A DNA stretch of 64,000 nucleotides, taken from the NCBI GenBank assembly GCA_004555335.1, contig SFII01000001.1, positions 5,411 through 69,410 of the forward strand, written 5' to 3'. Positions 5,629-61,365 of this stretch are shown in pieces. The notes under the pieces were generated by a model that saw only the letters and a program-made list of their open reading frames with translations, searched no databases and had not been told where the DNA came from. Position 1 is the first letter of the stretch, and every line of letters starts with the position of its first letter. Origin of the DNA: Coriobacteriaceae bacterium (GTDB lineage Bacteria; Actinomycetota; Coriobacteriia; Coriobacteriales; Eggerthellaceae). The translations under genes and the position numbers were made by a program.

Positions 5629-5662
5629 GTATCATATAAGCAGTTCGAAAGAAGGAGGAATC

Positions 5663-46803: not shown

Positions 46804-49272
46804 ATGACAATGGCTGAAGAAACGAAATACCAAGCGGTGGAAACCGCGGAGGTGATGCTCGGAGAGGGCATGAATTCCGCGGCGAAGAACGGTTGCTCCG
46901 AAGAGATGCTCGGAACCGCGCATTCCGCCGAATACAGCTTCACTTCGTCGGCGGCGGGCGCCGATCCCGCGAAGGTCACCAAATGCCAGTCTCCCGAAGA
47001 GCGCTTCGAGCGTCTGAGGGAGCTTGCATCCGAATACTTGGAGGAAAAGGACCTCGACTTCTTGGAGAGGGCCTTCAACTACGCCAACGAAGCCCACAAG
47101 GGCCAGTGCCGCAAGAGCGGCGAACCCTATATCACGCATCCCATCGAGGTCGCCATCATCCTGACCGACCTGCACATGGATGTGGAAACCCTGACTGCCG
47201 CCATCCTGCATGATACCGTTGAAGATACCGATGCCACCTTCGAAGAGGTTGCGAAGGTGTTCAACGAATCCGTCGCGCAGTTGGTAGAGGGCGTCACGAA
47301 GATCACCAGGATCGAAGTCGAGACCCTGACCGATCAGCAGGCCCAGACCATCCGCAAGATGCTCGTCGCCATGAACAAGGACATCCGAGTCATCGTCATC
47401 AAGCTTGCCGACCGCCTTCACAACATGCGAACCCTGTCTGCCCTGCGCGAGGACCGCCGTATCTTCAAGTCGCGTGAGACTTTGGAAATCTATGCGCCCA
47501 TCGCGCATCGCCTGGGTATCAATTCCATGAAGTGGGAGCTCGAGGACCTTGCCTTCTTCTACTTGGAGCCCGTCAAGTTCAAGCAGGTTTCCCGCCTGGT
47601 CGCCGAAAGCCGCCAGGAACGAGAGAAGTACCTCGCCTGCGTCATGAAAGAGCTCCAGGAGGAAATGGACTATCTGGGTATCGAATGCCAGATGATGGGC
47701 AGGCCCAAGCATCTGTATTCCATCTACCAGAAGATGGTCACCGGCGGTAAGGACTTCTCGGAAATCTACGACCTCATCGCCGTCCGCATCATCGTGAACT
47801 CGATCAACGAATGCTATTCGGCCCTCGGTGCGGTCCATTACCTGTGGCATCCCATGCCCGGGCGCTTCAAGGACTACATCGCGATGCCCAAGTACAACAT
47901 GTACCAGAGCCTGCATACCACCGTTATCGGTCCTGCTGCAAGGCCCTTGGAAGTGCAGATCCGTACCGAGGAGATGCACGAGATGAGCGAATACGGCGTT
48001 GCCGCCCACTGGAGGTACAAGGAAGGCGGCGGCGGGAAGAAGGATGCCGCCTTCGACCAGACCCTGGCATGGCTGCGCCAGATGGTCGACTGGCAGGACG
48101 AGACCCGCGACTCCCGCGAGTTCTTGAAGACCCTCAAGGTCGATCTTGCGGATTCCGAGGTGTACGTGTTCACCCCGAAGGGCGAGGTCGTCAGCCTGAG
48201 GGCGGGGTCCACTCCCGTCGACTTCGCCTATGCCATCCACACCGAAGTGGGCAACCATTGCGTGGGCGCCAAGGTGAACGCCGCGATTGTCCCCCTGTCC
48301 TACGAGCTCAAGATGGGCGACCGCGTGGAAATCCTGACCCAGAAGAGCGCGGCTCCCAACCGCAACTGGATCACGATGGTGAAAACGCCCAGCGCGCGAA
48401 GCAAGATCCGCTCGTATTTCAGCAAGGCATCGCGTTCGGATGATTTGCAGCTCGGCCACGATAAGCTGGTGCGCGAGATGCGCAAGAACGGCATGGGCAT
48501 CAACAATGCTCCCGGCCAGCGCGCCCTGCGCGAAGTCGCCGAGCATCTGGGCTTCAAGGACGTCGACGAGATGCTCATCGGCATCGGTTGCGATCGCGAG
48601 AGCGTCCAGCATGTTGCGAACCGCATGATCAAGCTCATGGTCGACCGTGAGGCGGAGGCGGAAGCGGAAGCCCAGCGCAGCTACAGCATGGGCATCAATA
48701 CGGGCAGGGCTATCCCCTTGCTCACCAACGTGAAGCATCCCAGCAAGAGGGAGACCCATTCCAGCAGCGGTATCGTGGTCAAGGGCGTGGAAGGCGTTCT
48801 CGTGCGCTTGGCGAATTGCTGCAATCCCGTTCCCGGCGATGACATCATGGGATTCGTCACCCGCGGCCGCGGCGTTTCCGTGCACAGGAGCGACTGCCCC
48901 AACGCGCAATCCCTCCAGTCTCAGAAAGAGCGCATCATCGATGTATCCTGGGATGCCAACCCCAAGGGCGATACCACGTACAAGGCGGAAGTGGTCATCG
49001 AGGCCGTCGACCGCATGAACCTGCTTCGCGATGTCATCGCGGTGCTTTCCGAAGAGGGGGCCAATGTGCTCTCGTCCTCTTCACGCGTGTCTCCCCGCGA
49101 CAATATGGCGGTGTTCAGGTTCCTCTTCCAGGTGAGCGACGTCGGGGCTATCAACAGCATCATCAGGAAGGCCGCGGCGGTCCATGGAGTCTTCGATGTC
49201 CACAGGACCATGCCGGGTGAAGATCCTGCCGCGGATGCGCGTAAGGCGATGAAGAAGGGAAGCATCAAGTGA
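46804..49272 (+). CDS. relA: bifunctional (p)ppGpp synthetase/hydrolase (RelA/SpoT homologue)
   Basis: HD domain (HPIEVAIIL...LHDTVEDT), synthetase domain (YIAMPKYNMYQSLHTTV), then TGS and ACT-like C-terminal regions. There is an N-terminal extension of about 65 aa. Confidence 0.95.
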   Translation: MTMAEETKYQAVETAEVMLGEGMNSAAKNGCSEEMLGTAHSAEYSFTSSAAGADPAKVTKCQSPEERFERLRELASEYLEEKDLDFLERAFNYANEAHKGQCRKSGEPYITHPIEVAIILTDLHMDVETLTAAILHDTVEDTDATFEEVAKVFNESVAQLVEGVTKITRIEVETLTDQQAQTIRKMLVAMNKDIRVIVIKLADRLHNMRTLSALREDRRIFKSRETLEIYAPIAHRLGINSMKWELEDLAFFYLEPVKFKQVSRLVAESRQEREKYLACVMKELQEEMDYLGIECQMMGRPKHLYSIYQKMVTGGKDFSEIYDLIAVRIIVNSINECYSALGAVHYLWHPMPGRFKDYIAMPKYNMYQSLHTTVIGPAARPLEVQIRTEEMHEMSEYGVAAHWRYKEGGGGKKDAAFDQTLAWLRQMVDWQDETRDSREFLKTLKVDLADSEVYVFTPKGEVVSLRAGSTPVDFAYAIHTEVGNHCVGAKVNAAIVPLSYELKMGDRVEILTQKSAAPNRNWITMVKTPSARSKIRSYFSKASRSDDLQLGHDKLVREMRKNGMGINNAPGQRALREVAEHLGFKDVDEMLIGIGCDRESVQHVANRMIKLMVDREAEAEAEAQRSYSMGINTGRAIPLLTNVKHPSKRETHSSSGIVVKGVEGVLVRLANCCNPVPGDDIMGFVTRGRGVSVHRSDCPNAQSLQSQKERIIDVSWDANPKGDTTYKAEVVIEAVDRMNLLRDVIAVLSEEGANVLSSSSRVSPRDNMAVFRFLFQVSDVGAINSIIRKAAAVHGVFDVHRTMPGEDPAADARKAMKKGSIK

Positions 49273-49967
49273 GTGCGATGGTGAATAAGGTGACGACCGG
49301 CTGCGCCCCGGTGGAGTACGTGGTTGTCGGCATGTTGGAGAATAACGTCTACTTCATCGAGGACGGCGAAGGCGGCGTCATCGTGTGCGACCCCAGCGAC
49401 CAGGTGGAAACGCTCCTTTCGGTGGCGGGGGACAGGAAGGTCTCCGCGATCTTCGTCACCCATAGGCACTTCGACCACGTCGGCGCCCTTGCCGCACTGA
49501 AGGAGGCGACGGGCGCACCCGTATATTGCGGTGCGATCGATGCGCCCGGTGTCGAAGGGCCTGAAGCCGGATCCCACGGCGTGGTGGTGGATTCCTGCAA
49601 GGTCGACTATCCCGTGGAAGACGGGCAGGCCATCACGGTGGGTAAGACCACCTGGAAGGTGATCCATACCCCCGGCCACACCAAGGGCGGCGTCTGCTAT
49701 TACCTCGACCCGGCGGATTGCGCCATCGAATGCGAGGGGCCGCGCTATCCGCTGCTCCTTTCCGGCGATACCCTGTTCCATCAGAGTACCGGGCGCACGG
49801 ATTTCGAGGGCGGCAGCGAGCAGGATATGCTCTACTCGATGAACCGTTTGGGCGAGCTTTCCGACGAAACCCTGGTGTTTCCCGGCCATTCTTCGCTGAC
49901 TACCATCGGAAGGAACAGGTTCTGGGTAATCGAGGCGTACGCCCGTTTCATCGGGATGGAGCAATAG
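49269..49967 (+). CDS. MBL-fold metallo-hydrolase (glyoxalase II-like)
   Basis: VTHRHFDHVGA is the HxHxDH motif, and HTPGHTKG follows. The GTG start overlaps the relA stop. Confidence 0.85.
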   Translation: MSAMVNKVTTGCAPVEYVVVGMLENNVYFIEDGEGGVIVCDPSDQVETLLSVAGDRKVSAIFVTHRHFDHVGALAALKEATGAPVYCGAIDAPGVEGPEAGSHGVVVDSCKVDYPVEDGQAITVGKTTWKVIHTPGHTKGGVCYYLDPADCAIECEGPRYPLLLSGDTLFHQSTGRTDFEGGSEQDMLYSMNRLGELSDETLVFPGHSSLTTIGRNRFWVIEAYARFIGMEQ

Positions 49968-50079
49968 CTCCAGGCGATTCTGCCTGGTACTGCTGTAAGG
50001 GAATCTTTACACTTGGGGCGAAGGGCTGCGGTAAAATCATTGGCTAGCGCCGTTGTCCCAGATGCTGTTAGGAGCGCAT

Positions 50080-50709
50080 ATGGCACGCAAGAAGAAGTAT
50101 GACTACTTCAAGACCTTCGAAGAGCAGGCGAAGACCGTCATCGAAGAGGCGGAACTGCTCGTCGAGGTTATCGAGAACTTTTCCTCCGCAGACGACATCA
50201 AGGCCGTGCTGCCGAAGGCCCATGAAATCGAAAATCGAGGCGACCAGCTGAATCACGAGAATTACAATGCGGTTGCCGTGGACTTCGTGACTCCCATCGA
50301 TCGCGAGGACCTGATCGATATCTCCAGTTCTCTCGACAGCATTATCGACCAGATGGAAGAAACCATCATGGAGTTCTACATGCTGCACATCCATAGCATG
50401 CACGAAAGCTGCCTGGAATTCGCCCGTTATGTGCTCGAGGCGTCCCGTGCCCTGCTTATCGCCGTCCAGGATTTCCAGAATTACAAGAAGTCCGCAACTT
50501 TCCGCGGTGCTATCGCGAAGGTGAACGATTGCGAAGAAGCGGCAGACGAGGCGTATCTGCGCATCATGCACAAGATGTACAGTGCCGATAATCCCGACCC
50601 CATCTACGTGCTGGTGTGGACGCGCATCTTCGATCAGCTGGAAGAATGCTGCGACGGTTGCGAGCATGTGGCAGACGCCCTGGAAACCGTCATGTTGAAG
50701 GATTCCTAG
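50080..50709 (+). CDS. DUF47 / PhoU-like (TIGR00153, YkaA-type) protein
   Basis: The N-terminus KKKYDYFKTFEEQAK and the helical repeats are typical of DUF47 phosphate-transport regulator-like proteins. RBS AGGAGCG. Confidence 0.75.
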   Translation: MARKKKYDYFKTFEEQAKTVIEEAELLVEVIENFSSADDIKAVLPKAHEIENRGDQLNHENYNAVAVDFVTPIDREDLIDISSSLDSIIDQMEETIMEFYMLHIHSMHESCLEFARYVLEASRALLIAVQDFQNYKKSATFRGAIAKVNDCEEAADEAYLRIMHKMYSADNPDPIYVLVWTRIFDQLEECCDGCEHVADALETVMLKDS

Positions 50710-50756
50710 GCCGAAAGGCTGCTTCGGGTTGCATTACGGCATAACTTGCACACATG

Positions 50757-50790
50757 CGGGCCGGCGGGTTCATCCTGCCGGCCCGTTTTC
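50757..50790 (+). terminator. rho-independent terminator after the DUF47 gene (possibly bidirectional)
   Basis: Stem GGGCCGGC / GCCGGCCC, followed by GTTTTC. Confidence 0.65.
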
Positions 50791-50912
50791 GCGTCTGAAG
50801 GAGGATTACTTGCGTACTCGGCGATTTCATGGGCTTATGGTTGCCGGCGGTAGGCCATGCCCAAAGAGGGCTCCGGCGTGCGGCAATCTGCAGTAGTGCG
50901 CCGTTTTCCGCG

Positions 50913-51716
50913 TCAGAGCCTGTGCTTATGGCGCGTCTTGTCGCGTCCTCGGGTGGAATGGCGGTTCTTCTTCACGCTCTTGCGCGCGTGGGCGGCAAGC
51001 GAGGAGATGTCTGCAGGTCCCAGGTCGGCCAGCTTGTCCTTGCCTTTCAGGGCGCGGACGGGTTTGGCGAGCGCATCTGCCATGGGGATGGTCAGGTCGC
51101 GTGCGGGCTTGGTGCGCCAGCCGAATTCAAGCGACGCGATCCTGATTCCGATGCCCAAAAGCACGCAGATCAGCGCCGACCAGTGGTCCAGGATATGGTA
51201 GGTGCGCATGATGGCGTAGGCGCTCGCGCTGATAGCCGCGGCGGATGCATAGAGGGATCCGGGGGTGAATGCCACGATGTGGTGGTTGAGTGCGACGTCG
51301 CGAACGATACCGCCTCCGACTGCGGTGAGCATTCCCAGCAGGATGGCAGGGACGATGCCCAATCCGGCGGCGATTGCCTTGCCTGCGCCGATGACTGCCC
51401 AAAGGCCGCATTGGATGATGTCCATGATCTCGATAAGGGGGTCGGCCAGTTTGACGAGCCTTCCGAAATAGAAGACCACCACGGCGCAGATCACGCAGGC
51501 GATGATGAGCTCGGGCCTTTGGAAGGCGTAGATGCCGTAGTCCTGCAACAGCACATCGCGCATGACTCCGCCGAACAGGCCGATGATGATCGCCATCATG
51601 ATGGTGCCGAGGATGTCGTATTTCTCGCGCGTTGCAGCGAGTGCGCCGGTCATGGCGCTGGTAACGGTTGCGGTCAATTCGAACCAGAACGGAATGGCGA
51701 GTCCGGTATCTAGCAT
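50913..51716 (-). CDS. trimeric intracellular cation channel (TRIC / UPF0126, YadS-like) membrane protein
   Basis: Two internal repeats each carry the GG..RD motif (GLFGGVMRDVL and AVGGGIVRDVA). ATG at 51716 is preceded by GGAGG. The C-terminal tail is basic. Confidence 0.8.
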   Translation of the reverse strand: MLDTGLAIPFWFELTATVTSAMTGALAATREKYDILGTIMMAIIIGLFGGVMRDVLLQDYGIYAFQRPELIIACVICAVVVFYFGRLVKLADPLIEIMDIIQCGLWAVIGAGKAIAAGLGIVPAILLGMLTAVGGGIVRDVALNHHIVAFTPGSLYASAAAISASAYAIMRTYHILDHWSALICVLLGIGIRIASLEFGWRTKPARDLTIPMADALAKPVRALKGKDKLADLGPADISSLAAHARKSVKKNRHSTRGRDKTRHKHRL

Positions 51717-51919
51717 CCTGCACCTCCTTGGGTCTCGGCGTCTTTCGCGATGGGTTTCCTTGGGCAAGCGATTCTGAATCCCCCGGGCCTTTCTGGGAAG
51801 GGCAGTCAAGGGAACTCCATGTTTGCATCAGATGTCGTTCATCCTACAGGGGCGACTGGTTGCGTTTTATGCGCATGTGGTTAATTGAGGGTAAAATCAG
51901 CGCTTGCGATAGAAGCGGC

Positions 51920-51930
51920 TGGTATCATTG
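51920..51930 (+). promoter_or_regulatory. candidate extended -10 promoter element TGGTATCATTG upstream of lysC
   Basis: Third exact copy of the 11-mer. It lies 61 nt upstream of the lysC ATG. Confidence 0.45.
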
Positions 51931-51990
51931 GGAAGGCTGTGGGGCCGCCGTGTCCTATGGAACAGAAAACGACCGAAGAAAAGGAACCCG

Positions 51991-53271
51991 ATGGCATTAA
52001 TCGTAGCAAAGTTCGGCGGAACCTCCGTTGCGTCCCCCGAACGTATCCAGATGGTTGCCAAGCGCCTGATCTCCATCAAGCAGCAGGGCAACGACGTGGT
52101 GGCCGTAGTTTCGGCAATGGGCAAGACCACCGACGAACTGGTCGGTTTGGCCGCTGCGCTGAGCAAGAACCCTCCCGCCCGCGAAATGGATAGGCTGCTC
52201 TCCACGGGCGAACAGGTTTCCATGACCCTGCTCGCCATGGCGATCGAGGCAAGGGGATACCGTGCGATGAGCTTCACCGGCCGCCAGGCAGGTATCAAGA
52301 CCAGCACCGAGCACAAGAAGGCCAAGATCCAGCTCGTGCATGCCGATCGCATCCAGACCGCTATCGAAGAGGGTTACATCCCTGTCGTTGCCGGCTTCCA
52401 GGGAATCGACGAAAAGGGCGATATCACCACCTTGGGCCGTGGCGGTTCCGACACCACCGCCGTCGCCGTCGCCTACGGCATCGGCGCGGATGTGTGCGAG
52501 ATCTATTCCGATGTCGACGGCGTATATAGCGCCGATCCCCGTCTGGTTCCCCGCGCACGCAAGCTCGACGTCATCAGCTACGACGATATGCTGGAGCTGT
52601 CCAGCGCAGGCGCCGGCGTCCTGCAGGCGCGTGCCGTCGAATTGGCCCGTAAGTACAATGTTGTCATCCATTCCCGCTCTGCATTCTCCGACGCACCGGG
52701 CACACTGATCAAGGAGGACGATCCTTCCATGGAAAAGGCAGTTATTTCCGGCATCGCTCACGACACCTCGGAAGTGAAGATCACCATCCGCGATGCTCCG
52801 GACGAGTCCGGTATCGCGTCCAAGATCTTCAGCGCGCTTGCCGGCAATAAGGTCAACCTGGACATGATCATCCAGAACGTGTCCGAAGAAGGCAGCACCG
52901 ACATGACCTTCACCTGCCCCGAGTCCGATTTGGACAAGGCGCGTGAAGTCGTCGAGAACGTCATTCCCGTCATCCGCGCCCGCGACTACGTGGTCGACGA
53001 GAATATCGCGAAGGTGTCCCTGGTTGGCACCGGCATGAAGTCCAGCCCCGGCGTTGCCGCACGCGCGTTCACCGCGCTCGCCGAGGCCGATGTGAACATC
53101 ATCCTGATCTCCACCAGCCCCATCCGCCTGTCCATGGTTGTTGCTGCCGACCAGGTTGAAGTGGCCGTTCGCGCTTTGCATACCGCATTCGGATTGGATT
53201 CTGATAGCGTATTTGAAGAAACCATGCTTTCTGCCGAAGAGCTGGAGGCCAAGAAGAAGAAGGGTCGCTAG
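51991..53271 (+). CDS. lysC: aspartate kinase (alpha subunit frame)
   Basis: MALIVAKFGGTSV, VVSAMGKTTDEL, LGRGGSDTTAVA, and two C-terminal ACT domains. Confidence 0.95.
   Translation: MALIVAKFGGTSVASPERIQMVAKRLISIKQQGNDVVAVVSAMGKTTDELVGLAAALSKNPPAREMDRLLSTGEQVSMTLLAMAIEARGYRAMSFTGRQAGIKTSTEHKKAKIQLVHADRIQTAIEEGYIPVVAGFQGIDEKGDITTLGRGGSDTTAVAVAYGIGADVCEIYSDVDGVYSADPRLVPRARKLDVISYDDMLELSSAGAGVLQARAVELARKYNVVIHSRSAFSDAPGTLIKEDDPSMEKAVISGIAHDTSEVKITIRDAPDESGIASKIFSALAGNKVNLDMIIQNVSEEGSTDMTFTCPESDLDKAREVVENVIPVIRARDYVVDENIAKVSLVGTGMKSSPGVAARAFTALAEADVNIILISTSPIRLSMVVAADQVEVAVRALHTAFGLDSDSVFEETMLSAEELEAKKKKGR
52729..53271 (+). CDS. lysC: possible in-frame aspartate kinase beta subunit (internal start)
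   Basis: An in-frame ATG 52729 (MEKAVISGIAHD...) lies at the start of the ACT region and is preceded by AAGGAGGA (52711-52718). Overlapping alpha and beta subunits are known for lysC of Corynebacterium and Bacillus. Confidence 0.45.
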   Translation: MEKAVISGIAHDTSEVKITIRDAPDESGIASKIFSALAGNKVNLDMIIQNVSEEGSTDMTFTCPESDLDKAREVVENVIPVIRARDYVVDENIAKVSLVGTGMKSSPGVAARAFTALAEADVNIILISTSPIRLSMVVAADQVEVAVRALHTAFGLDSDSVFEETMLSAEELEAKKKKGR

Positions 53272-53299
53272 TCCGCGCGGCTCCGAAAAGGCATTATTC

Positions 53300-53336
53300 G
53301 GGTGGCAGGCGCATCGAGCCTCCACCCGTTTTTTTA
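53300..53336 (+). terminator. rho-independent terminator after lysC
   Basis: Stem GGGTGGCAGGC / GCCTCCACCC, followed by a T7 run. Confidence 0.85.
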
Positions 53337-53365
53337 TGTATACGAACACCTGAAAGGGGAACAAC

Positions 53366-54442
53366 ATGGCTTGGACCAAGGAAATGCCCGCAAATCCCGT
53401 AGTCGCAATCGCCGGCGCAACCGGTGCCGTCGGCCGCGAGATGCTCAAGTGCCTTGAACAGGTGAACTTCCCCGCCAAGGAAATCCGCTTGCTGGCCTCT
53501 GCCCGTTCCGCCGGCCAGACCGTTCCCTTCGCAGGTTGCGGTGACCTGCCCGCCGGTGAGCTGACTGTGCAGGAAATGACCGAGGAAAGCTTCCAGGGCG
53601 TCGATATCGCGCTGTTCAGCGCGGGTGCCGGCGTGTCCAAGAAGTTCCGCCAGGCGGTTGTGGATGCTGGTGCCGTGATGATCGACAACTCCAGCGCATT
53701 CCGCATGGATAAGGACGTCCCCCTGATCGTGCCCGAGGTCAATGCCGAAGACGTTGCCTGGCACAATGGCGTTATCGCCAATCCCAACTGCACGACCATC
53801 CAGATGGTCGTCGCTCTGGAGCCCCTGCGTGCCCTGGGCCATATCGACCGCATTATCGTGAGCAGCTACCAGTCTGCAAGCGGCGCGGGCGCAAAGGGCA
53901 TGGCAGAACTGGAAGACCAGGCGGGCAAGGTCCTTGCCGGCGAGGATTTCGAGCCTTCCGCCTTCGCCCATCAGATTGCCTTCAACTGCATCCCCCATAT
54001 CGACGTCTTCATCGACGGTGATTATCTGAACGACGCCCCCGAAGGCTACACCAAGGAAGAATGGAAGATGGTGGTGGAAACCAAGAAGATCTTCCATGAC
54101 GATACGGTCCAGGTCGCGCCCACCTGCGTGCGCGTCCCTGTGCTGCGTTGCCATTCCGAGAGCATCAACCTGGAATTCGATCGTCCCGTTTCCATCGAGG
54201 CGGTGAAGGAAGCTCTTGCAAACGGCAAGAACGTCGTTCTGGAAGACGATCCCGCGAACAACGTGTACCCCATGCCCGCCCTGCACGCAGGTTCCTTCGA
54301 CACCTTCGTTGGCCGTGTGCGCCGCGATGCCACCGTGGCAGACGACCGTGGCGTTGCCATGTGGGTGGTTGCCGACCAACTGCTGCGCGGTGCTGCCCTG
54401 AACGCGGTGTACATCGCCCAGGCACTGCTGCCCCAGGCTTAG
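53366..54442 (+). CDS. asd: aspartate-semialdehyde dehydrogenase
   Basis: VAIAGATGAVG, NPNCTTIQMV (active-site Cys), SYQSASGAG. RBS GAAAGGGGAA. Confidence 0.95.
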   Translation: MAWTKEMPANPVVAIAGATGAVGREMLKCLEQVNFPAKEIRLLASARSAGQTVPFAGCGDLPAGELTVQEMTEESFQGVDIALFSAGAGVSKKFRQAVVDAGAVMIDNSSAFRMDKDVPLIVPEVNAEDVAWHNGVIANPNCTTIQMVVALEPLRALGHIDRIIVSSYQSASGAGAKGMAELEDQAGKVLAGEDFEPSAFAHQIAFNCIPHIDVFIDGDYLNDAPEGYTKEEWKMVVETKKIFHDDTVQVAPTCVRVPVLRCHSESINLEFDRPVSIEAVKEALANGKNVVLEDDPANNVYPMPALHAGSFDTFVGRVRRDATVADDRGVAMWVVADQLLRGAALNAVYIAQALLPQA

Positions 54443-54544
54443 CGCTTCCAAGGTACGCTTGCGGCAAAAAGCTGCCGTTCGCAGATTGAATCGGCGGGGT
54501 CTTGCCTAAGGCGTATCGGCCTGATAATATCTAGGTACGTGCTG

Positions 54545-54574
54545 AGCACCGCTCCTTCGGGAGCGGTGCTTTAT
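54545..54574 (+). terminator. rho-independent terminator after asd
   Basis: 11-bp stem AGCACCGCTCC / GGAGCGGTGCT with a TTCG loop, followed by TTAT. Confidence 0.75.
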
Positions 54575-54585
54575 GCATTTCTGGG

Positions 54586-54623
54586 CAGAAAAACGCTCTC
54601 CGATCGAACTATCGGGGAGCGTT
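54586..54623 (-). terminator. rho-independent terminator of the small ppk1-downstream ORF
   Basis: Stem AACGCTC..CCGAT / ATCGG..GAGCGTT. The minus strand reads TTTTTCTG after the stem. It is convergent with the asd terminator. Confidence 0.7.
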
Positions 54624-54656
54624 GCTGTTTCGACCGCGAATGCTTTTCGGTTCGTG

Positions 54657-54915
54657 CTAGTTTCGGCCGAGCAGCTTATCGATGATGCGTGCGATCAGGC
54701 CCTTCTTCTGGGGGGTGCGGACAGGGTCTTGCGGTGCTTGCATTTCCTGGGCTTGCTCGGCCCCGCCGCTGAAAGGCTTGATAGGCACTCCGCCGGCACT
54801 GCGTACGCATGCAGGTTCCGGTTCGGGCTCTGCGGGCCAACCGCCGAGCGGGGGGGATGGGTGCGCCGCCTGCGCTGCGCAGGCCGATGTACTCGTTTTC
54901 CTTCTTTGCAGACAT
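54657..54915 (-). CDS. small PPK1-tail-like protein, reading frame interrupted at a C7 homopolymer (85 aa if one C is removed)
   Basis: RBS AAGGAGAG plus ATG 54915 gives MSAKKENEYIGLRSAGGAPIPP. After the run at 54850-54856, the shifted frame reads LGGWPAEPEPEPACVRSAGGVPIKPFSGGAEQAQEMQAPQDPVRTPQKKGLIARIIDKLLGRN and stops at 54657-54659. The as-sequenced frame becomes Arg-rich nonsense and stops at 54676. Confidence 0.55.
54771..54812 (-). repeat. motif copy ACVRSAGGVPIKPF (small ORF, shifted frame)
   Basis: 31 of 42 nt are identical to the ppk1 segment 55438-55479. The peptide motif is shared. Confidence 0.6.
54850..54888 (-). repeat. motif copy IGLRSAGGAPIPP (small ORF, initiating frame)
   Basis: About 28 of 39 nt are identical to the corresponding ppk1 segment. 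It ends in the C7 run. Confidence 0.55.
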
Positions 54916-55059
54916 TTTCTCTCCTTGCTGTTTGGGATGCCGGTAGTTGGACCGGTTCGAGCCGGCCATTCGACGATCGCCGAGGCGGGTCTGCTGCCTG
55001 CAATCGTCGGCGGGCATTGTCCGCTTTAGGAGCAGATTCTGCAAGGTTTGTTATCAAGG

Positions 55060-55095
55060 TCGAACGCCCCCGAATCGGTATTCGGAGGCGTTCGA
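55060..55095. other. strong intergenic hairpin between ppk1 and the small ORF
   Basis: 16 bp with one mismatch (TCGAACGCC-C-CCGAAT / ATTCGG-A-GGCGTTCGA) and a CGGT loop. There is no U-tail on the minus strand. The plus strand has CTCTTTT 6 nt downstream. Confidence 0.6.
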
Positions 55096-55137
55096 TAAGC
55101 TCTTTTAATAGCAGCTGTTCAGCTATTGCCGTTTGCT

Positions 55138-58100
55138 TTATTTGTTGCGTCCGAACAGGCGGGCGAAGAAACCCTTCTTCGTTGCGGGCTTGGCGTCAGC
55201 GGATGCGCTGTGCTTAGGTGCGCCTGGCGTTGCCTTGGGTGTTTCAACGGGTGCAGGCTCGGCGGCAGGTGCGGGCTCGGGTGCGGGTTCTGCAACCGTG
55301 ACAGGCTGGGTTTCGGCTGCTTCGGGCTCGCTTGCGGGCGTTTCCATTGCAGGATCGTCGGCTTCCTGTCCGGTTTCCTCGATAGGCTGTGTGTTTTCGG
55401 GCGCGGGTTCGTCGGCCTGCTTGCCGGAATTTCCGCTATAGGGTGCGATGGGCGCACCGCCGGCGCTGCGTACGCATACGGGCTCGATCGCGATGCGGAC
55501 AGGTGCTTCCTCGGGTGCTGCTTCGTGCGCTTCATCGGCGGGCTCGCAGGGCGCCTCGTCGGTTCGATCGGCTTCGGGTGCCTGGGGTCCTTCTGCGGGA
55601 GCCTCTTCGATGGCTGCAGCTTCATCTACGGATTCCGCTTCCTGAGCAGGCTCGACGCTTGCAGATGCCTGGGTGTCCCGATCCTGCTTGGCCTCAGGGG
55701 CGTCTGCCTGTTCGGGTTCCTTTTCTTCGGCGGTTTCCTGGGCTGCGGTGGCGAGGCCGCCCATTTCGGCAAAGGCACGGGCAGCAGCCTTGATGAAGGG
55801 TTTCAGGGCTTCGTCGTCGGCGTTGGGCATGTCGTGCTTGAGTGCCTCGCGGAAAACCTCTTCCAGGCTGTTGACCGCATTGCGTTCGCGTGCGGCGGCC
55901 TGGCGGTCGGATTTAGCCTGCATGCACAGCTTCTCGTAGGCGCTCTTTTCCTCCATCTCGCTGGCAAGCGCATCTTCGGAGCGCTGCTTGGTGATGGCGA
56001 TCAGGGCTTCCTGGGCGTCGAAGAGCTTGCCGGCAGCACGGTCTTCCTCGCTTGCGAGTTCGCCCAGCTCGGTGTAGGTTCCGTCAGGCCTCAGCTCGCG
56101 CAGTTTCGCGGTGTCCTTCAGGCAGGTATCGATGTATTCCATGATCTTGGCGCGGGGCTCTTCGCCCAGGACGGGCCATGCGATCTCGATGCGCTTGTCC
56201 ATGTTGCGCGTCATCAGGTCGGCGCTGGACAGGTACAGCTTCATGGTGTCGTGGGAGCCGAAGCCGTAGATGCGGCTGTGCTCAAGCAGCCTGCCGACGA
56301 TGGAGACCACGCGCACGTTGTCGGTGTAGCCTTCCACGCCCGGCAGGATGCAGCTGATGCCGCGGACCAACAGGGTGGTGGGCACGCCCGCCTGCGATGC
56401 CTCGACGATCTTCAGGATGACGTCCTTGTCGGTGATGGAGTTGGTCTTGAAGAACAGCCCGCAGGGCTCGCCCTTCTTCGCAAGCTCGATCTGGCCGTCG
56501 ATTTCCTCGCAGATGCGCTGCTTGATCTGCAGCGGGGCGACGCACAGCCTGGTGTAGGCGCGCGAGGTGCTTTCCATACCCATGTTGCGGAAGAATTCGG
56601 TGGCATCGCGCCCGATCACGGGATCGGTGGTGATGAAGGAGAAGTCGGTGTACAGGCGCGCGGTCTTCTCGTTGTAATTGCCGGTGCCCAGCTGGGTGAT
56701 GGTCTGGAATCCGTCTTCGGTGCGGCGGATGATGGAGCAGATCTTGCTGTGCACCTTGTAGTCGTGGAAGCCGTAGATGACGTTGCAGCCGGCTTCCTCG
56801 AAGCGCTGGGACCAACGGATGTTATTGCTCTCGTCGAAGCGGGCGCGCAGCTCGAACAGCGCGGAGACCTCGATGCCGGCATCGGCGGCGGCGATGAGGG
56901 CCTCTGCCAGATGCGACCTGCTTGCCAAGCGGTACAGGGTGATATTGATGGCGACAACGTTGGGGTCTGCGGCGGCTTCGCGCAAAAGCTGCACGAAGGG
57001 GTCCATGCTCTCATAGGGGTAGGAGAACAGCAGCTCGCGCTTCTGGACCTGGTCGATGATGCGCTCGTTGCGCTTCGCTTCTGCGGGCCATGCCGGCGCG
57101 AAGGGCGTGCTGGTGTGGGCCTGGCGCAATTCGTCGCCTACCAGGCTGGGCAGCGAGAAGGCGTAGCCCATGTTGAAGGGCACGGAGGTGGTGAAGACCT
57201 GGTGCGGCTTCAAGTCGGTGCGCGAGAGCAGGAACTTGCTCACCGTTTCGGAGAGCTTCCTGCGGCTTTCCAAGCGCACGGGTGCCAGGCGCGAGCGCTT
57301 TTTCAGGATCTTCTTCATGTGCTCGCGATAGTCGTCATCGGCTTCGTCGGCGCCTTCGGTTGCGTCCAGGTCGGCGTTGCGGGTGATGCAGATGATGTTG
57401 GAGTGCTTGATGGTGTACATCGAGAAGATCTCCGAGAGGAAGGCCTCCAGGGCGTCTTCGAGCAGGATGTAATTGAATCCCTTGCCAGGGAGCGCGATCA
57501 GGCGGTTCGCCTTGCTGGGCAGGGGGATGAGCCCCAGCGTGACGCCTTCGGCGCCCAGCGCCTTGAGCCTCTTGCGCTCTTCCTTTGCACGGCGCTTTTC
57601 CGCATCGCTCATCTCCGACTTCTTCTTGAGGTTCTGCTCCTCGAGTCGGACGATGATGAAGATCTCGCCGCTTTCCAAGTGGGGGAAGGGATGGCGTCCG
57701 TTGACGATCTGCGGGGTGAGCAGGGGGATCACGTTCGCGCGCAGATGGGTGCGAACGTGCTTGAGCTGCTCTTCGTTGAGCTCGCTGAACTGGAACCTGC
57801 GGATGCCGGCCTGCGCCAACTCGCCTTCCAGGTTCTTGTAAATGGATTCTTGGATGGGGTACAGCTCGCGTACGCGCGCATAGATGGCGTCGAGCTGCTC
57901 ATCGGGGGTCATGAGCGTCTTGGAGTCGAGAAGCTCTTTATTCACCAGGGAAAGGTCGACCAGGCTTCCGACGCGAACCATGAAGAATTCTCGCAGGTTG
58001 CTTTCGAAGATGGATACGAACTGGAGCCTTTCCAGCAAGGGAATGGACGGGTCTGCACCCTGATCGAGCACCCTCTTGTTGAATTCGAGCCAGGAAAGCT

Positions 58101-58164
58101 CGCGATTCTGCATGAAGGGCATGCGTTGCTTGCGTTTCTGCTCCGGATTGGCGTTGTCGGCCAT
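55138..58164 (-). CDS. ppk1: polyphosphate kinase 1 with a C-terminal low-complexity extension of about 280 aa
   Basis: The N-terminus FMQNRELSWLEFNKRVL and the remaining PPK1 domains run to about residue 725. An acidic, Pro/Ala-rich tail follows, containing VCVRSAGGAPIAPY (55438-55479) and ending KKGFFARLFGRNK (55141-55179). Confidence 0.93.
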   Translation of the reverse strand: MADNANPEQKRKQRMPFMQNRELSWLEFNKRVLDQGADPSIPLLERLQFVSIFESNLREFFMVRVGSLVDLSLVNKELLDSKTLMTPDEQLDAIYARVRELYPIQESIYKNLEGELAQAGIRRFQFSELNEEQLKHVRTHLRANVIPLLTPQIVNGRHPFPHLESGEIFIIVRLEEQNLKKKSEMSDAEKRRAKEERKRLKALGAEGVTLGLIPLPSKANRLIALPGKGFNYILLEDALEAFLSEIFSMYTIKHSNIICITRNADLDATEGADEADDDYREHMKKILKKRSRLAPVRLESRRKLSETVSKFLLSRTDLKPHQVFTTSVPFNMGYAFSLPSLVGDELRQAHTSTPFAPAWPAEAKRNERIIDQVQKRELLFSYPYESMDPFVQLLREAAADPNVVAINITLYRLASRSHLAEALIAAADAGIEVSALFELRARFDESNNIRWSQRFEEAGCNVIYGFHDYKVHSKICSIIRRTEDGFQTITQLGTGNYNEKTARLYTDFSFITTDPVIGRDATEFFRNMGMESTSRAYTRLCVAPLQIKQRICEEIDGQIELAKKGEPCGLFFKTNSITDKDVILKIVEASQAGVPTTLLVRGISCILPGVEGYTDNVRVVSIVGRLLEHSRIYGFGSHDTMKLYLSSADLMTRNMDKRIEIAWPVLGEEPRAKIMEYIDTCLKDTAKLRELRPDGTYTELGELASEEDRAAGKLFDAQEALIAITKQRSEDALASEMEEKSAYEKLCMQAKSDRQAAARERNAVNSLEEVFREALKHDMPNADDEALKPFIKAAARAFAEMGGLATAAQETAEEKEPEQADAPEAKQDRDTQASASVEPAQEAESVDEAAAIEEAPAEGPQAPEADRTDEAPCEPADEAHEAAPEEAPVRIAIEPVCVRSAGGAPIAPYSGNSGKQADEPAPENTQPIEETGQEADDPAMETPASEPEAAETQPVTVAEPAPEPAPAAEPAPVETPKATPGAPKHSASADAKPATKKGFFARLFGRNK
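55438..55479 (-). repeat. motif copy VCVRSAGGAPIAPY in the PPK1 tail
   Basis: Shares both the peptide motif and nucleotide similarity with 54771-54812 and 54850-54888. Confidence 0.6.
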
Positions 58165-58352
58165 GGTGTGAATCTCCCTCCGTGATGGCTGCCCTCTTCG
58201 GTTTGAGGAAGGCGGGACGCGGTTTGGAATAATCTCCTTAACATACTTATATCACAGGTGGTTGGAATGCTTCGTTTTTGCTGTTATCCCTTATCTTGGT
58301 TTGCTATTATCTACAGTTTTTCATATGGGACTTTGACACTTGTATTTCTGAT

Positions 58353-58365
58353 AACGATTATCGTT
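58353..58365. promoter_or_regulatory. perfect 6-1-6 palindrome AACGATTATCGTT in the ppk1/ppk2 divergent region (candidate operator)
   Basis: It is an exact inverted repeat read directly from the sequence. It lies between two TTGACAC elements in a low-GC intergenic region. Confidence 0.35.
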
Positions 58366-58374
58366 TACCGCAAA

Positions 58375-58404
58375 TTGACACGCGTTTATCCTGGCGGGTA
58401 TGCT
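58375..58404 (+). promoter_or_regulatory. candidate sigma70-type promoter of ppk2
   Basis: -35 TTGACA (58375-58380), 18-nt spacer, -10 TATGCT (58399-58404), 78 nt upstream of the ATG. A second TTGACA lies at 58333-58338. Confidence 0.4.
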
Positions 58405-58481
58405 TTTGCCACCATGCAGCCTGGTTGTTCGGGTCCTGCCAATCCAAATGGGCTCGGACTCCTATGTAAGGAGCAATTCCC

Positions 58482-60209
58482 ATGCTTGAGAAAATTGATT
58501 TCGATGTCGAGAAGATCACCAAGGAAGAATACAAGCCCGTACGCGACGAGCTTGTGAACCGCCTGGTCGTTCTGCAGCAGGAAGCCCGATCCAAGGGTAT
58601 CGGTTTGGTGGTGCTGTTCGAGGGCTGGAACGGTGCCGGCCGTGGCGGTCGCATCTCCGATCTGATGTACAATCTCGACGCCCGTGCAACCTCCGTCCAT
58701 GTGACCCAGAGCGAAGAAACCGCGAATGCCAGGATGTTCCGCGACCGGGGTTACGGCGCCACCGACTTCTATCCCCTCATGAAGGAATTCTGGGATGCGC
58801 TCGACATGCGCGGCAACATGACCCTCTATGATCGCGGCTGGTACGACATCGCCGCGAGGGAGGCCTTCTACGCGTATGCCGACAAGCATCCCCTGAAGAA
58901 GGGCAAGAGGTCCGATGCGAGCAAGAAGGAACTCGAGGAAATCAAGACGGTTTTCGCAAACTCGATCGAATCCGCCGAACGTTTCGAGCATCAGCTGGTC
59001 GAAGACGGCTATGTGGTGGTGAAGTTCTTCCTGCATATCACCAAGGCGGAGCAGGAACGCCGCCTGAAGCGCCTCGCTTCCGACCCCAACACCGCATGGC
59101 GCGTCGAGCCCGGTGCCCTGAAGAGGATCAACGACCATGACTTCTACTACGATGTCTTCGACAAGCTGATCGAGCGCACCAACTTCGACTTCGCACAGTG
59201 GGTCGTCGTGAATGCCGAAGACCGCCGCCGCGCCAATCTTACCATCGCGCGCACCCTGGTCAACGCACTCGACGAGGCGGTCAACCGTGCAGCCGATCCC
59301 GAGGTGGCGGCAGCTGCGGCGAAGGCGGCATCCAATTCCGCCGGTGCATCCGCCCAGGTGGAAGGCGACGAGCGCGTCCGCACCCCCGAGCAGAATGCGG
59401 CAATCCGCGAAGCGAACGAAGCGGCGGCGGCATTGCAGCATTCCTTCGCTCCCGCTTCCTCCAAGTTCCCCATCGAGGCGGCCTATCCCACCCTCAAGGG
59501 CGTCGACTACCATCTGCGCCTGGATAGGGAAAAGTACAAGGTCATCCTGAAGGAAGAGCAGAAGAGGCTCTACGACCTGGAATTGGAGATGTACCTGCGC
59601 CGTATCCCCATGATCTTCATGTTCGAAGGCCAGGATGCCGCGGGCAAGGGCGGCAGCATCAAGCGCATCGCCCAGGCCCTGGACGCGCGCAGCTACACCA
59701 TCTATCCCAGTCCTGCTCCCACCAAGCCCGAGCTGATGCATCCCCACCTGTGGCGCTACTGGACCCGCCTTCCCAAGGCAGGCCACGTGGGCATCTACGA
59801 CCGCAGCTGGTATGGCCGCGTGCTCGTGGAAAGGGTCGAGGGATTCGCAAGCCCCAGCACTTGGGCGCGTGCGTATGACGAGATCAACGAGTTCGAGCGC
59901 GACCTGGTGGATTGGGGTGCCGTGCTGCTGAAGTTCTGGGTCGAGATCGACCGTGACGAGCAGATGAAGCGCTTCGTCGCCCGCGAGCAGAATCCCGACA
60001 AGGTGTGGAAGATCACCGAAGAGGACTGGCGCAACCGCGACAAGTACCCCCAGTACCGCGAGGCCGTGGAGGATATGTTCCGCCTCACCTCCACCGAATA
60101 CGCCCCCTGGACCATCCTGGAAAGCAACGACAAGCTCTATGCCCGCGTCAAGGCCCTGAAGACCATCAACGCGGCATTGGAGAAGCGCTTGGAGCAGGAA
60201 AAGATCTAA
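58482..60209 (+). CDS. ppk2: two-domain polyphosphate kinase 2 (PPK2 class II / polyphosphate:AMP phosphotransferase-like)
   Basis: Two tandem PPK2 domains. The first has VVLFEGWNGAGRGG (a Walker A variant). The second has IFMFEGQDAAGKGG...YDRSWYGRVLVERVEGF. RBS TAAGGAG. Confidence 0.9.
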   Translation: MLEKIDFDVEKITKEEYKPVRDELVNRLVVLQQEARSKGIGLVVLFEGWNGAGRGGRISDLMYNLDARATSVHVTQSEETANARMFRDRGYGATDFYPLMKEFWDALDMRGNMTLYDRGWYDIAAREAFYAYADKHPLKKGKRSDASKKELEEIKTVFANSIESAERFEHQLVEDGYVVVKFFLHITKAEQERRLKRLASDPNTAWRVEPGALKRINDHDFYYDVFDKLIERTNFDFAQWVVVNAEDRRRANLTIARTLVNALDEAVNRAADPEVAAAAAKAASNSAGASAQVEGDERVRTPEQNAAIREANEAAAALQHSFAPASSKFPIEAAYPTLKGVDYHLRLDREKYKVILKEEQKRLYDLELEMYLRRIPMIFMFEGQDAAGKGGSIKRIAQALDARSYTIYPSPAPTKPELMHPHLWRYWTRLPKAGHVGIYDRSWYGRVLVERVEGFASPSTWARAYDEINEFERDLVDWGAVLLKFWVEIDRDEQMKRFVAREQNPDKVWKITEEDWRNRDKYPQYREAVEDMFRLTSTEYAPWTILESNDKLYARVKALKTINAALEKRLEQEKI

Positions 60210-60252
60210 GCTGCGATTCGGGACCTTCCGGGATTCCCGAGAACGCGCACCC

Positions 60253-60304
60253 CGCCTCCCGACACCTGTGCAGAGCGTGCAGGCGTTGGGAGGCGTTTCA
60301 TCTT
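60253..60304 (+). terminator. rho-independent terminator after ppk2
   Basis: Outer stem CGCCTCCC / GGGAGGCG with an inner CCTG / CAGG, followed by TTTCATCTT. Confidence 0.6.
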
Positions 60305-60376
60305 CTGGGCATCCGGTTGTGGTAGGGTGGAACGGTTAGCGTTTGCGCGGCAATCGCCGATTGCGAAAGGAGCCGA

Positions 60377-61246: not shown

Positions 61247-61365
61247 GACGGCGCGCCCGCATTACCCCGGTTTCGGGCATGCGCCCCTGCGCACTTGTCC
61301 CGATGCCCCCAATCCTTCACAATTGGCTTCGCAGATGCGTTGCCTCGAGCATAAGGAGTATCCAC

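Follow-up and report, generated by a model that had tools for sequence, protein, structure and literature searches.

The window, a 64-kb stretch of DNA, carries on its minus strand the polyphosphate kinase gene ppk1 and, next to it, a small gene whose reading frame is interrupted as sequenced (Table 1). The small ORF begins with MSAKKENEYIGLRSAGGAPIPP and runs into seven C residues (G7 on the plus strand, 54850-54856), after which the frame as sequenced reads ARRLARRARTG... to a stop at 54676. With one C fewer, it reads LGGWPAEPEPEPACVRSAGGVPIKPFSGG...KKGLIARIIDKLLGRN* and closes at a stop at 54657-54659. The C6 form of the gene is 258 nt long and encodes 85 aa identical to P0006, a protein that gene calls place on 334 public contigs and that occurs in 421 index blocks; the frameshift repair proposed at this run in a preliminary description of the DNA therefore matches a common natural allele letter for letter. 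P0006 is always encoded between ppk1 and the convergent asd gene, and the same synteny is found in two sister lineages, B and C.

The RBS and the ATG at 54915 that had been claimed for the small ORF are both present, and the RBS version CAAGGAGA is kept across the alignment of lineages A, B, and C. A promoter-like block is likewise kept in the three gene-bearing lineages and is missing together with the gene in L016, although it scores below the threshold of a sigma-70 scanner, which called no promoter. The minus-strand rho-independent terminator reported after the stop was recovered by folding (−20.6 kcal/mol, RNAfold); a simple scanner overlooked it because the stem carries one mismatch. This terminator is retained with compensatory changes in lineages B and C. 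A second strong hairpin, located between ppk1 and the promoter-like block, is kept in lineages A, B, and C and in L016.

Table 1. Features of the small gene and of ppk1, in window coordinates
Feature	Position	Strand	Remarks
Small gene as sequenced	54657..54915	minus	frameshifted in the window
Promoter-like block, TTGCAG-17 nt-GACAAT	55016..55044	minus	putative, by inference only
RBS, AAGGAGAG	54919..54926	minus	5 nt spacing to ATG 54915-54913
Motif copy 1 (LRSAGGAPIPP)	54850..54882	minus	intact allele continues LGGWPAE
Poly-C tract 1	54850..54856	minus	C7 in window (OFF)
Motif copy 2 (VRSAGGVPIKP, within EPACVRSAGGVPIKPFSGG)	54774..54806	minus	closest copy to the PPK1 motif
Poly-C tract 2	54710..54715	minus	ACC CCC CAG = T-P-Q just before the helix; C6 in window, in frame
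C-terminal basic amphipathic helix, KKGLIARIIDKLLGRN	54660..54707	minus	predicted membrane-targeting
Rho-independent terminator of small gene (stem, U5)	54587..54623	minus	34 nt past the stop
Strong hairpin without U-run, 3' of ppk1	55061..55094	minus	−35.6 kcal/mol for 93-nt stretch, z −6.5
ppk1	55138..58164	minus	1008 aa
PPK1 tail motif, VRSAGGAPIAPYSG	55432..55473	minus	residues 898-911
PPK1 C-terminal helix, KKGFFARLFGRNK	55141..55179	minus	predicted, MinD membrane-targeting type

Both the shifted frame and the motif are conserved in relatives, namely in lineages A, B, and C. In pairwise comparisons of the three lineages, the differences at first, second, and third codon positions of the repaired frame number 12/12/32, 8/5/27, and 11/8/32, an excess of synonymous differences with a binomial P of ~1e-5. 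The corresponding dN/dS is 0.19-0.22 at a dS of 0.56-0.81, a substitution pattern consistent with coding. The small gene with its repaired frame is real and is under purifying selection. Other reading frames at the locus were rejected. The in-frame upstream extension of the small gene, a 122-aa ORF starting at 55044, lies in different frames in lineages A and C, and what the lineages share there is solely the DNA of the promoter-like block. For a 214-aa plus-strand ORF (54573-55217), the third-position substitutions of the minus frame land on first codon positions. A resemblance to SecM/RAPP-type arrest peptides, double-glycine leaders, lipoboxes, and sortase signals was also set aside, as spacing and context are unsuitable.

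The gene is an orphan of very narrow distribution. At 50% identity, its protein family makes up a single cluster in a set of 1.84 billion representatives, and a HMMER profile run against the same set returned only this cluster and one spurious repeat protein. Searches of the small protein against Pfam, NCBIfam, and PDB sequences gave no match, nor did an Rfam search of the region. A scan of a genome-contig collection with the small-protein alignment gave 56 pattern matches, none of which was confirmed, and the species appears to be absent or masked there. The equivalent metagenome-contig scan returned lineage B again and three soil contigs. The soil contigs encode a 684-aa protein with APIPPLGGWP and a C-terminal LLDTLNKILGRR; we attribute this likeness to chance because the identity is 29% and the matches were picked by the search pattern itself. 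In frameshifted genomes the annotation of the gene is wrong, with hypothetical proteins of 43 aa or 73 aa among the calls. The mini-gene is dispensable. It is missing from L016, which among sequenced genomes is the nearest relative not belonging to lineages A, B, or C; the PPK1 of L016 carries the motif, and its core identity nests L016 among the gene-bearing lineages. Lineage C contigs mostly bear an 11-nt deletion that shifts the ATG out of the reading frame, although P0155 represents an intact allele of this lineage.

PPK1 itself consists of a catalytic core to about residue 712, a helical extension (717-813), a disordered acidic linker (about 812-996), and a terminal helix. Within the disordered linker, conservation is confined to the tail motif. 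Residues 894-912 read EPVCVRSAGGAPIAPYSGN, of which 14 of 19 are identical to the small protein on recounting, as previously claimed. The nucleotide likeness over the core also stands, although the exact count is 32 of 42 rather than the 31 of 42 given before. In single BLASTP comparisons of the small protein with the PPK1 tail, motif 2 has an E value of 1e-8 and motif 1 one of 9e-5, and the nucleotide local alignment score between the small gene and the ppk1 tail is 44 compared to 23.2 ± 2.8 for codon shuffles; these E values and the score above the shuffles place the likeness beyond chance. The two sequences share the order motif, linker, KKG-helix-GRN, and stop, which bears out the description of the mini-gene as a paralogous miniature of the PPK1 tail. 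The small protein has no match to the catalytic domains N, H, C1, and C2 (PF13089/PF02503/PF17941/PF13090) and is homologous solely to the noncatalytic tail.

The motif has a 13-residue consensus, R-S-A-G-G-x-P-I-x-P-[FLY]-[SG]-G, present twice in the mini-protein and once in PPK1. Within the motif 1 region, G11-G17, I20, and P22-A28 are invariant across lineages despite synonymous differences. The earlier view that the motif belongs to no described family agrees with the domain and family searches, which gave no match, and in the searches made RSAGGxPIxP was confined to the PPK1 tail and mini-gene of this clade. A search with the PPK1 tail returned no further motif-bearing proteins, just HTH proteins with the same terminal helix. 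An AlphaFold2 model of full-length PPK1 gives the motif a pLDDT of ~32-35 with no local rise and no sign of docking on the enzyme, a weak negative because alignment depth is nil at this position.

Both proteins end in a helix. AlphaFold2 models the small protein as coil apart from a helix at residues 73-81 (mean pLDDT of 85 for residues 71-80 and 77 for 81-85) and PPK1 as having a disordered tail with a terminal helix at 999-1004; in each, the helix follows lower-confidence coil and ends 3-4 residues ahead of the stop. Lineages A, B, and C all share KKGLIARIIDKL and GRN unchanged and have L or F at position 82. The net charge of the terminal helices is +4 to +5, and the best 11-mer has a hydrophobic moment of 0.79 in the mini-protein and 0.40 in PPK1; the same measure gives 0.27 for Escherichia coli MinD. 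The membrane-targeting sequence of E. coli MinD is KGFLKRLFGG (PMC5471200), and PPK1 KGFFARLFGR equals it at 8 of 10 positions. In a set of 120 Eggerthellaceae PPK1s, almost every member terminates in a basic amphipathic helix, and an unrelated HTH protein likewise ends in an acidic linker and an KKKGFFARLFGNK module. These observations support the suggestion of a portable localization module. Judging from sequence, the terminal helices are likely to bind the membrane, although polyanions such as polyP or DNA are also possible ligands of basic amphipathic helices.

The small gene contains two poly-C tracts, and both differ in length between strains. In tract 1, C6 is common and ON, C8 is OFF, and C9 is ON with one extra Pro; the C7 of the window retains motif 1 and loses motif 2 and the anchor helix. 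In tract 2, which also occurs as C6, the C7 (P0017, 31 contigs) and C8 (P0019, 4 contigs) alleles both lose the helix. Out-of-frame lengths of either tract thus truncate the product. The tract 1 C7 is the sole G/C homopolymer of at least 7 in the window, where 13 G/C runs of at least 6 are observed against ~69 expected from base composition alone; 2 of these 13 fall within the 258-nt gene (P ~0.001). Across 26 contigs and 1.9 kb, indels occur solely at the two tracts once artifacts in two poor contigs (a scaffold gap in L001 and an asd deletion in L007) are set aside. All G5/C5 runs are invariant, and no other homopolymer within 12.5 kb varies.

OFF alleles occur on at least 4-5 SNP haplotypes, several of them identical to those of ON contigs: the window matches the ON contig L079 at all informative sites, and L086 matches L073/L080. 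The C8 alleles lie on the same haplotypes as C9, which is itself seen on several haplotypes. By gene calls rather than reads, in-frame lengths (6 and 9) dominate, with ~90% of contigs ON and ~10% OFF, and the OFF alleles have no secondary lesions. As in contingency genes, a repeat within the ORF sets the length of the product, and its variants recur independently among close strains. The small gene is hypermutable and, to go by these alleles, probably phase-variable, and switching at the tracts seems somewhat more probably reversible than one-way. The variation could instead reflect recurrent, mildly deleterious mutation that is purged by selection rather than adaptive switching.

The explanation that we favor begins with the partial copying of the ppk1 3' end within a narrow clade of one Eggerthellaceae genus. 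The duplicate forms a unit of its own, independent of ppk1, with a promoter-like block, RBS, 85 codons, and terminator, and its product is a predicted intrinsically disordered peptide of two motif copies, an acidic spacer, and a basic amphipathic helix. The PPK1 counterpart has one motif copy in a disordered acidic tail of ~185 residues, followed by the MinD-like helix. Their terminal helices would place both proteins on the cytoplasmic face of the membrane, where both would offer the same motif to the same putative partner. Given the same anchor and the same motif, the bivalent mini-protein may compete with PPK1 or co-cluster with it around the partner, which would tune the site or activity of polyphosphate synthesis. 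Single-base slippage at the two tracts would gate the gene genetically between ON (C6 or C9 in tract 1, C6 in tract 2) and OFF (C7 or C8), and in the window one extra C in tract 1 would switch it off. We consider it reasonably probable overall that a tail-derived, disordered, phase-gated mini-gene lies beside ppk1. Binding of a partner by the motif, with a role as competitor or co-localizer, is a more tentative proposal. That the product is a phase-switched, membrane-anchored, bivalent decoy microprotein of the PPK1 docking motif, causing heritable, reversible cell-to-cell differences in polyphosphate, is a speculative reading that we regard as rather doubtful.

Several other explanations bear on the interrupted frame. 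The extra C might be a homopolymer sequencing or assembly error in an organism that carries an intact C6, with nothing switched off. The identity of the window with L079 at every informative SNP fits an error, as do the position of C6 as by far the commonest tract 1 state and the absence of the C7 product, looked up as four start-site variants, from the called proteins of the public collection. Yet at least three sources (ENA scaffolds, k141-named ENA contigs, and Logan contigs) contain numerous independent assemblies in which out-of-frame alleles dominate, a general error process sits poorly with the constancy of every other homopolymer within 12.5 kb, and NCBI annotates a truncated 43-aa 3' ORF in 6 contigs, four accessions being MAG proteins. 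Because an out-of-frame tract 1 would lead an annotator to just such a 43-aa call, genuine OFF genomes very likely exist, and we regard an error in the window as unlikely, if by no means negligible. Far less plausible is that the 3' end of ppk1 was once partially duplicated in tandem and that the ORF is what remains of the copy, nonfunctional and decaying, with its lesions marking stages of pseudogenization. Decay of this kind could account for the separate lesions (C7/C8 at two tracts, the 11-nt deletion in lineage C, and absence in L016) and for the narrow distribution of an orphan; it is contradicted by a dN/dS of ~0.2 over a dS of up to 0.8, by a near-invariant helix (one L/F position) and two motifs kept through many synonymous changes, and by the retention of RBS, ATG, promoter-like block, and terminator. 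Each of the three lineages has intact alleles, tract lengths of 6 and 9 are in strong excess, and no secondary lesions accompany the OFF alleles; selection is not relaxed, and with ~90% of contigs ON the locus does not behave as a pseudogene.

A programmed change of frame, in which ribosomal +1 frameshifting or RNA-polymerase slippage makes the full-length product from C7, is highly improbable. CCC-C runs are slippery sites for tRNA-Pro, and a +1 slip on ATC CCC CCC G would restore the C6 sequence IPPLGGW. The need for a shift is not conserved, however, since the orthologues are read in frame without one: the site holds no homopolymer in lineages B and C (ATCACCCCTCTC and ATTCCTCCGCTC), and an in-frame C6 or C9 is present in ~90% of lineage A contigs. 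Equally hard to credit is a conserved RNA, such as a ppk1 3' UTR element or a small RNA, with an incidental ORF. The strong conserved hairpins that flank the region would suit it, but the substitutions show a codon periodicity specific to one frame, the motif copies differ mostly at synonymous sites, and Rfam gave no match. The helices might also target polyphosphate granules or the nucleoid by charge instead of the membrane, making the mini-protein granule-associated. Their net charge agrees with this, as does the basic tail of Caulobacter Ppk1, required for localization to granule sites (PMC3806658). On the other side, the PPK1 tail equals the MinD sequence at 8 of 10 positions, its F/L/I hydrophobic face is typical of membrane insertion, and Eggerthellaceae-wide variants of the helix (KKPSLLVRFLSLFVR, KHGFFWRLFH) preserve hydrophobic periodicity rather than charge, which leaves granule targeting improbable next to the membrane anchoring that we prefer.

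The placement and regulation of PPK1 in bacteria are little known outside Caulobacter, and a family-wide MinD-like anchor on Eggerthellaceae PPK1 would offer a concrete mechanism of localization. The clade-specific motif common to PPK1 and the neighboring mini-gene provides a ready bait for PPK1 partners. If the proposed origin and gating hold, the locus would represent a rare bacterial small protein born from the tail of the adjacent gene's product and an unusual contingency locus, affecting a cytoplasmic regulator rather than a surface structure. The decoy reading, if true, would further imply a bacterial microProtein regulator under phase variation and point to a partner that recognizes RSAGGxPIxP[FLY][SG]G.

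MicroProteins, or decoy paralogues, are small proteins made from the interaction module of a larger protein, a concept developed in eukaryotes. The mini-protein resembles them in being duplication-derived, in comprising interaction or localization modules only, with no catalytic part, and in adjoining its parent. It differs in being bacterial and in having a short linear motif and an anchor helix instead of a folded dimerization domain, and competition is here a prediction. The poly-C tract of Mycobacterium tuberculosis glpK is seven nucleotides long (7C). Homopolymer-tract phase variation is reported in Actinomycetota, glpK being an example (10.1101/717272; PMC10334774). Our locus shares with such loci a short in-ORF poly-C, recurrent single-base indels on many backgrounds, and a minority of OFF alleles with no further lesions. 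Unlike them, it has two tracts in a 258-nt gene and a second ON state in the in-frame +3 allele C9, and its target is a predicted cytoplasmic small protein of a gut commensal.

For Caulobacter crescentus, the available text of Henry and Crosson (2013, PMC3806658) describes a Ppk1 localized by its C-terminal tail, a 22-residue polybasic segment right after domain C2, and in that text no separate mini-gene is described. In both cases PPK1 carries, beyond its catalytic domains, a C-terminal extension particular to the lineage, which in Caulobacter sets the position of the enzyme, whereas the Eggerthellaceae extension is of ~300 residues and comprises a helical region, the acidic disordered linker, the motif, and the amphipathic helix. 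As in membrane-targeting sequences of the MinD/FtsA type, the predicted helix lies at the extreme C-terminus after a flexible linker and has a basic/hydrophobic pattern (KGLIARIIDKLLGR in the mini-protein), and the module appears to be portable between unrelated proteins. In contrast to that type, it is predicted here on a polyphosphate kinase and a disordered mini-protein rather than on a ParA- or actin-type ATPase.

The mini-gene beside ppk1 encodes, once its frame is repaired, a protein that occurs naturally. A sequence check and folding agreed with the preliminary description of an RBS, an ATG, a break at a C7 run, a repaired frame and a terminator. The C7 run is the sole G/C homopolymer of at least 7 nt in the whole window; the as-sequenced frame beyond it gives an Arg-rich peptide with a stop at 54676, and deletion of one C yields LGGWPAEPEPEPACVRSAGGVPIKPFSGGAEQAQEMQAPQDPVRTPQKKGLIARIIDKLLGRN followed by a stop. 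A simple terminator scanner made no call at the terminator hairpin because of one stem mismatch. The repair itself was right, as the exact 85-aa sequence (protein P0006) is found in 334 contigs and 421 index blocks (NCBI, ENA, Logan). Searching 5.8 billion protein clusters brought up an 85-aa protein that matches the repair at 99% identity and has the junction PIPPLGGWPAEP expected from it, as well as an orthologue of 82 aa (71% identity) and a third lineage. The hosts are uncultured Eggerthellaceae (Coriobacteriia), which apparently come from animal guts, judging by sample and record names.

Features of the mini-gene and its surroundings (window positions)
Feature	Position	Strand	Remarks
RBS AAGGAGAG	54919-54926	minus	precedes ATG 54915
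Mini-gene ORF start	ATG 54915	minus	opens MSAKKENEYIGLRSAGGAPIPP
Tract 1, C7 run (plus-strand G7)	54850-54856	minus	after ORF opening MSAKKENEYIGLRSAGGAPIPP
Tract 2, ACC CCC CAG	54710-54715		just 5' of helix codons
Stop of repaired frame	54657-54659	minus	
43-aa GTG-start ORF	54657-54788	minus	MPIKPFSGG...GRN
Terminator hairpin and U5 run	54587-54623	minus	folding, -20.6 kcal/mol
TTGCAG-17 nt-GACAAT block	55044-55016		
Hairpin 3' of ppk1	55061-55094	minus	very stable, no U-run
ppk1 (PPK1, 1008 aa)	55138-58164	minus	residues 894-912 EPVCVRSAGGAPIAPYSGN; end KKGFFARLFGRNK
PPK2, two-domain	58482-60209	plus	
Sortase	60377-61246	plus	directly downstream of PPK2
PhoU_div protein	50053-50709	plus	

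In every locus fetched, the mini-gene lies between ppk1, on the same strand, and a convergent asd-ask pair, with PPK2 and sortase genes upstream of ppk1 and divergent from it. In the scaffold of the cluster representative (P0001; contig L001, ~5950-6000), an N run and non-homologous sequence stand just upstream of the ATG; this difference stems from an assembly artefact rather than from a distinct promoter. Two open frames were rejected as GC-rich shadow ORFs: a 214-aa plus-strand ORF over the mini-gene (54573-55217) and a 1019-aa frame antisense to ppk1 (55126-58185, plus).

Selection was compared among lineages A (the window species), B (contig L002) and C (contig L011), whose PPK1 cores are 96-99.6% identical. 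The repaired frame has a dN/dS of 0.19-0.22 at a dS of 0.56-0.81, with differences per codon position of 12/12/32, 8/5/27 and 11/8/32; the synonymous excess has binomial P values of ~1e-5. Despite codon differences, the amino acids do not vary in either motif copy (RSAGGxPIxP), in an LGGWPA segment or in almost all of the helix KKGLIARIIDKL[LF]GRN. The RBS, the ATG and the TTGCAG-17 nt-GACAAT block are kept across the three lineages, and the terminator is kept with compensatory changes. The frame and motif first read from a single sequence are thus conserved in relatives, and these coding-type substitution patterns show a real gene under selection. The family is an orphan: Pfam, NCBIfam and PDB held no relatives of the mini-protein, Rfam had no match for the region, and only its own cluster was recovered among 1.84 billion 50%-identity representatives.

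The mini-gene had been described as a miniature of the PPK1 tail, comprising the motif and the terminal helix, and sequence comparison bears this out. BLASTP of the repaired protein against the PPK1 tail gave E values of 1e-8 (motif 2, the second copy) and 9e-5 (motif 1, the first copy), and the nucleotide alignment of the motif scored 44 versus 23.2 +/- 2.8 for codon shuffles. Both proteins share the order motif, linker, KKG-helix-GRN and stop, to which the mini-protein adds a further motif copy at its N-terminus and four inserted residues in the helix. Together, these likenesses show paralogy. Past the catalytic core, the PPK1-tail alignment is conserved in a helical extension that reaches about residue 805, in the motif P-x-C-[VL]-RSAGG-[AV]-PIAP-[YF]-SG and at the end, PKH...KKGFFARLFGRxK. 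The predicted extension in Eggerthellaceae (residues 717-813, ~100 residues, between domain C2 and the disordered linker) is covered by none of the Pfam PPK models; we know of no such extension after C2 in E. coli-type PPK1. The motif was also said to belong to no described family, and RSAGGxPIxP[FLY][SG]G indeed had no counterpart in our searches, which returned this clade's PPK1 and mini-gene only. A 684-aa soil-type metagenome protein (L069 3456-5510, also L068 and L070) carrying RPAPIPPLGGWPGP and ending LLDTLNKILGRRTAR was rejected as a relative at 29% identity; the match was favoured by the search pattern itself, so the likeness is probably a coincidence.

What the preliminary description missed is that the frame break lies at a site that varies between strains and probably acts as a switch. 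At the tract 1 site, a homopolymer is missing from lineages B and C (ATCACCCCTCTC and ATTCCTCCGCTC), and lineage A has ATC CCC CCG, a C6 run. In lineage A, the intact C6 is by far the commonest state, C8 (P0005) occurs in at least nine contigs and C9 (P0007, 86 aa, one extra Pro) in 25 index blocks. In-frame lengths of 6 and 9 dominate, and out-of-frame (OFF) lengths make up ~10% of contigs. Tract 2 occurs as C6, C7 (P0017; 31 contigs, 36 blocks) and C8 (P0019; 4 contigs). The window has 13 G/C runs of at least 6 nt versus ~69 expected from composition, and two of the 13 fall in the 258-nt mini-gene (P ~0.001). Across 26 contigs x 1.9 kb, indels were confined to tracts 1 and 2, setting aside assembly artefacts in L001 (scaffold gap) and L007 (asd deletion), both poor contigs, and the G5, C5 and T5 runs were all invariant. 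Six NCBI contigs carry the 43-aa ORF annotated as hypothetical (e.g. MDD6636120.1). An annotator would call this 3' remnant with tract 1 out of frame, so annotation of the real 85-aa gene is probably wrong in these contigs.

A programmed frameshift at C7 was rejected because the orthologues are in frame. Although less probable, a sequencing error in the window may account for its C7, a state seen in this contig alone within lineage A. OFF alleles lie on at least 4-5 SNP haplotypes, and several OFF contigs share haplotypes with in-frame (ON) contigs (the window with L079; L086 with L073/L080). C8 and C9 also share common haplotypes (L009 with L092; L005, L008 and L010 with L089 and L090), which makes loss of one C from C9 the simplest origin of C8. 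Tract polymorphism is thus recurrent. Taken together, tract variation, haplotype recurrence, in-frame dominance and the 43-aa annotations show a hypermutable locus with selection for an open frame. Reversible ON/OFF switching is probable.

The nearest species representative in the collection searched, L016 (MAG PUUB16_bin.031; PPK1 83% identical overall), has the motif in PPK1 and no mini-gene. Its ppk1-asd spacer is ~280 nt versus ~700 nt in the window and is without promoter-like block, ORF or terminator. In PPK1 core identity, lineages A and B resemble L016 more than they do lineage C, which makes a loss in L016 likelier than a gain elsewhere. Most contigs of lineage C carry an 11-nt deletion that shifts the ATG out of frame; P0155 is an intact lineage C allele of 83 aa. 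The mini-gene is conserved but dispensable. In lineage B, ~430 nt of additional sequence (L002 ~5468-5900) separate the ppk1 stop from the conserved 3' hairpin, a stretch absent from lineages A and C and L016. That hairpin is kept in all four lineages, including L016 (93-nt stretch, -35.6 kcal/mol, z -6.5), and is a candidate terminator, RNA stabiliser or processing site. Around ppk1 (48500-61300) lies a cluster of phosphate and stringent-response genes, with RelA/SpoT just past the PhoU_div protein in related loci.

AlphaFold2 models show predicted disorder and a terminal helix in both proteins. The mini-protein is disordered except for helix 73-81 (C-terminal pLDDT block means 85 and 77; hydrophobic moment of the helix 0.79), and PPK1 has a confident core to ~712, helices at 717-813, disorder at ~812-996 (pLDDT 32-40) and a terminal helix at 999-1004. 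Confidence in the PPK1 model does not rise at the motif, so the model gives no hint of the motif binding the enzyme itself. By eye, a basic amphipathic helix ends all but ~6 of 120 Eggerthellaceae PPK1 homologues (KKGFFSRLFGK, KHGFFWRLFH, KKLGFFGRLLKLLFG, KKPSLLVRFLSLFVR); a strict regex matched 61/120, most others being variants such as KKPSLLVRFLSLFVR. Two XRE-type HTH proteins unrelated to PPK1 (P0162, 163 aa, L099 4001-4492; P0163, 178 aa) comprise an HTH domain, then a linker of acidic (EAPVAEP)n repeats, and end in KKKGFFARLFGNK; this is the same linker and MinD-like helix module as in Eggerthellaceae PPK1. Found on such an unrelated protein, the module looks portable, and P0162 and P0163 may be membrane-tethered transcription factors.

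We propose that PPK1 and the mini-protein are both tethered to the cytoplasmic membrane face through their terminal helices, which probably bind membrane, and would display the same linear motif. Much more tentatively, the bivalent mini-protein, having no catalytic part, could compete with PPK1 for a putative motif-binding partner; alternatively, it might co-cluster with PPK1 around that partner. When tract 2 slips, the anchor is lost, and when tract 1 slips, both motif 2 and the anchor are lost; either event would create ON/OFF heterogeneity. The locus bears on polyphosphate and small-protein biology.

KGFFARLFGR at the PPK1 end agrees at 8/10 positions with KGFLKRLFGG, the membrane-targeting sequence of E. 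coli MinD (PMC5471200). Our literature search found no published description of an amphipathic-helix anchor on PPK1; the nearest precedent is Caulobacter Ppk1, localised by a polybasic C-terminal tail (PMC3806658). The tract pattern is the same as that reported for homopolymer-tract phase variation in Mycobacterium tuberculosis (10.1101/717272, PMC10334774). The locus is not a categorically new system but a new variant assembled from known elements, namely a predicted MinD-type anchor, a homopolymer tract like those of contingency loci, and a putative decoy paralogue.
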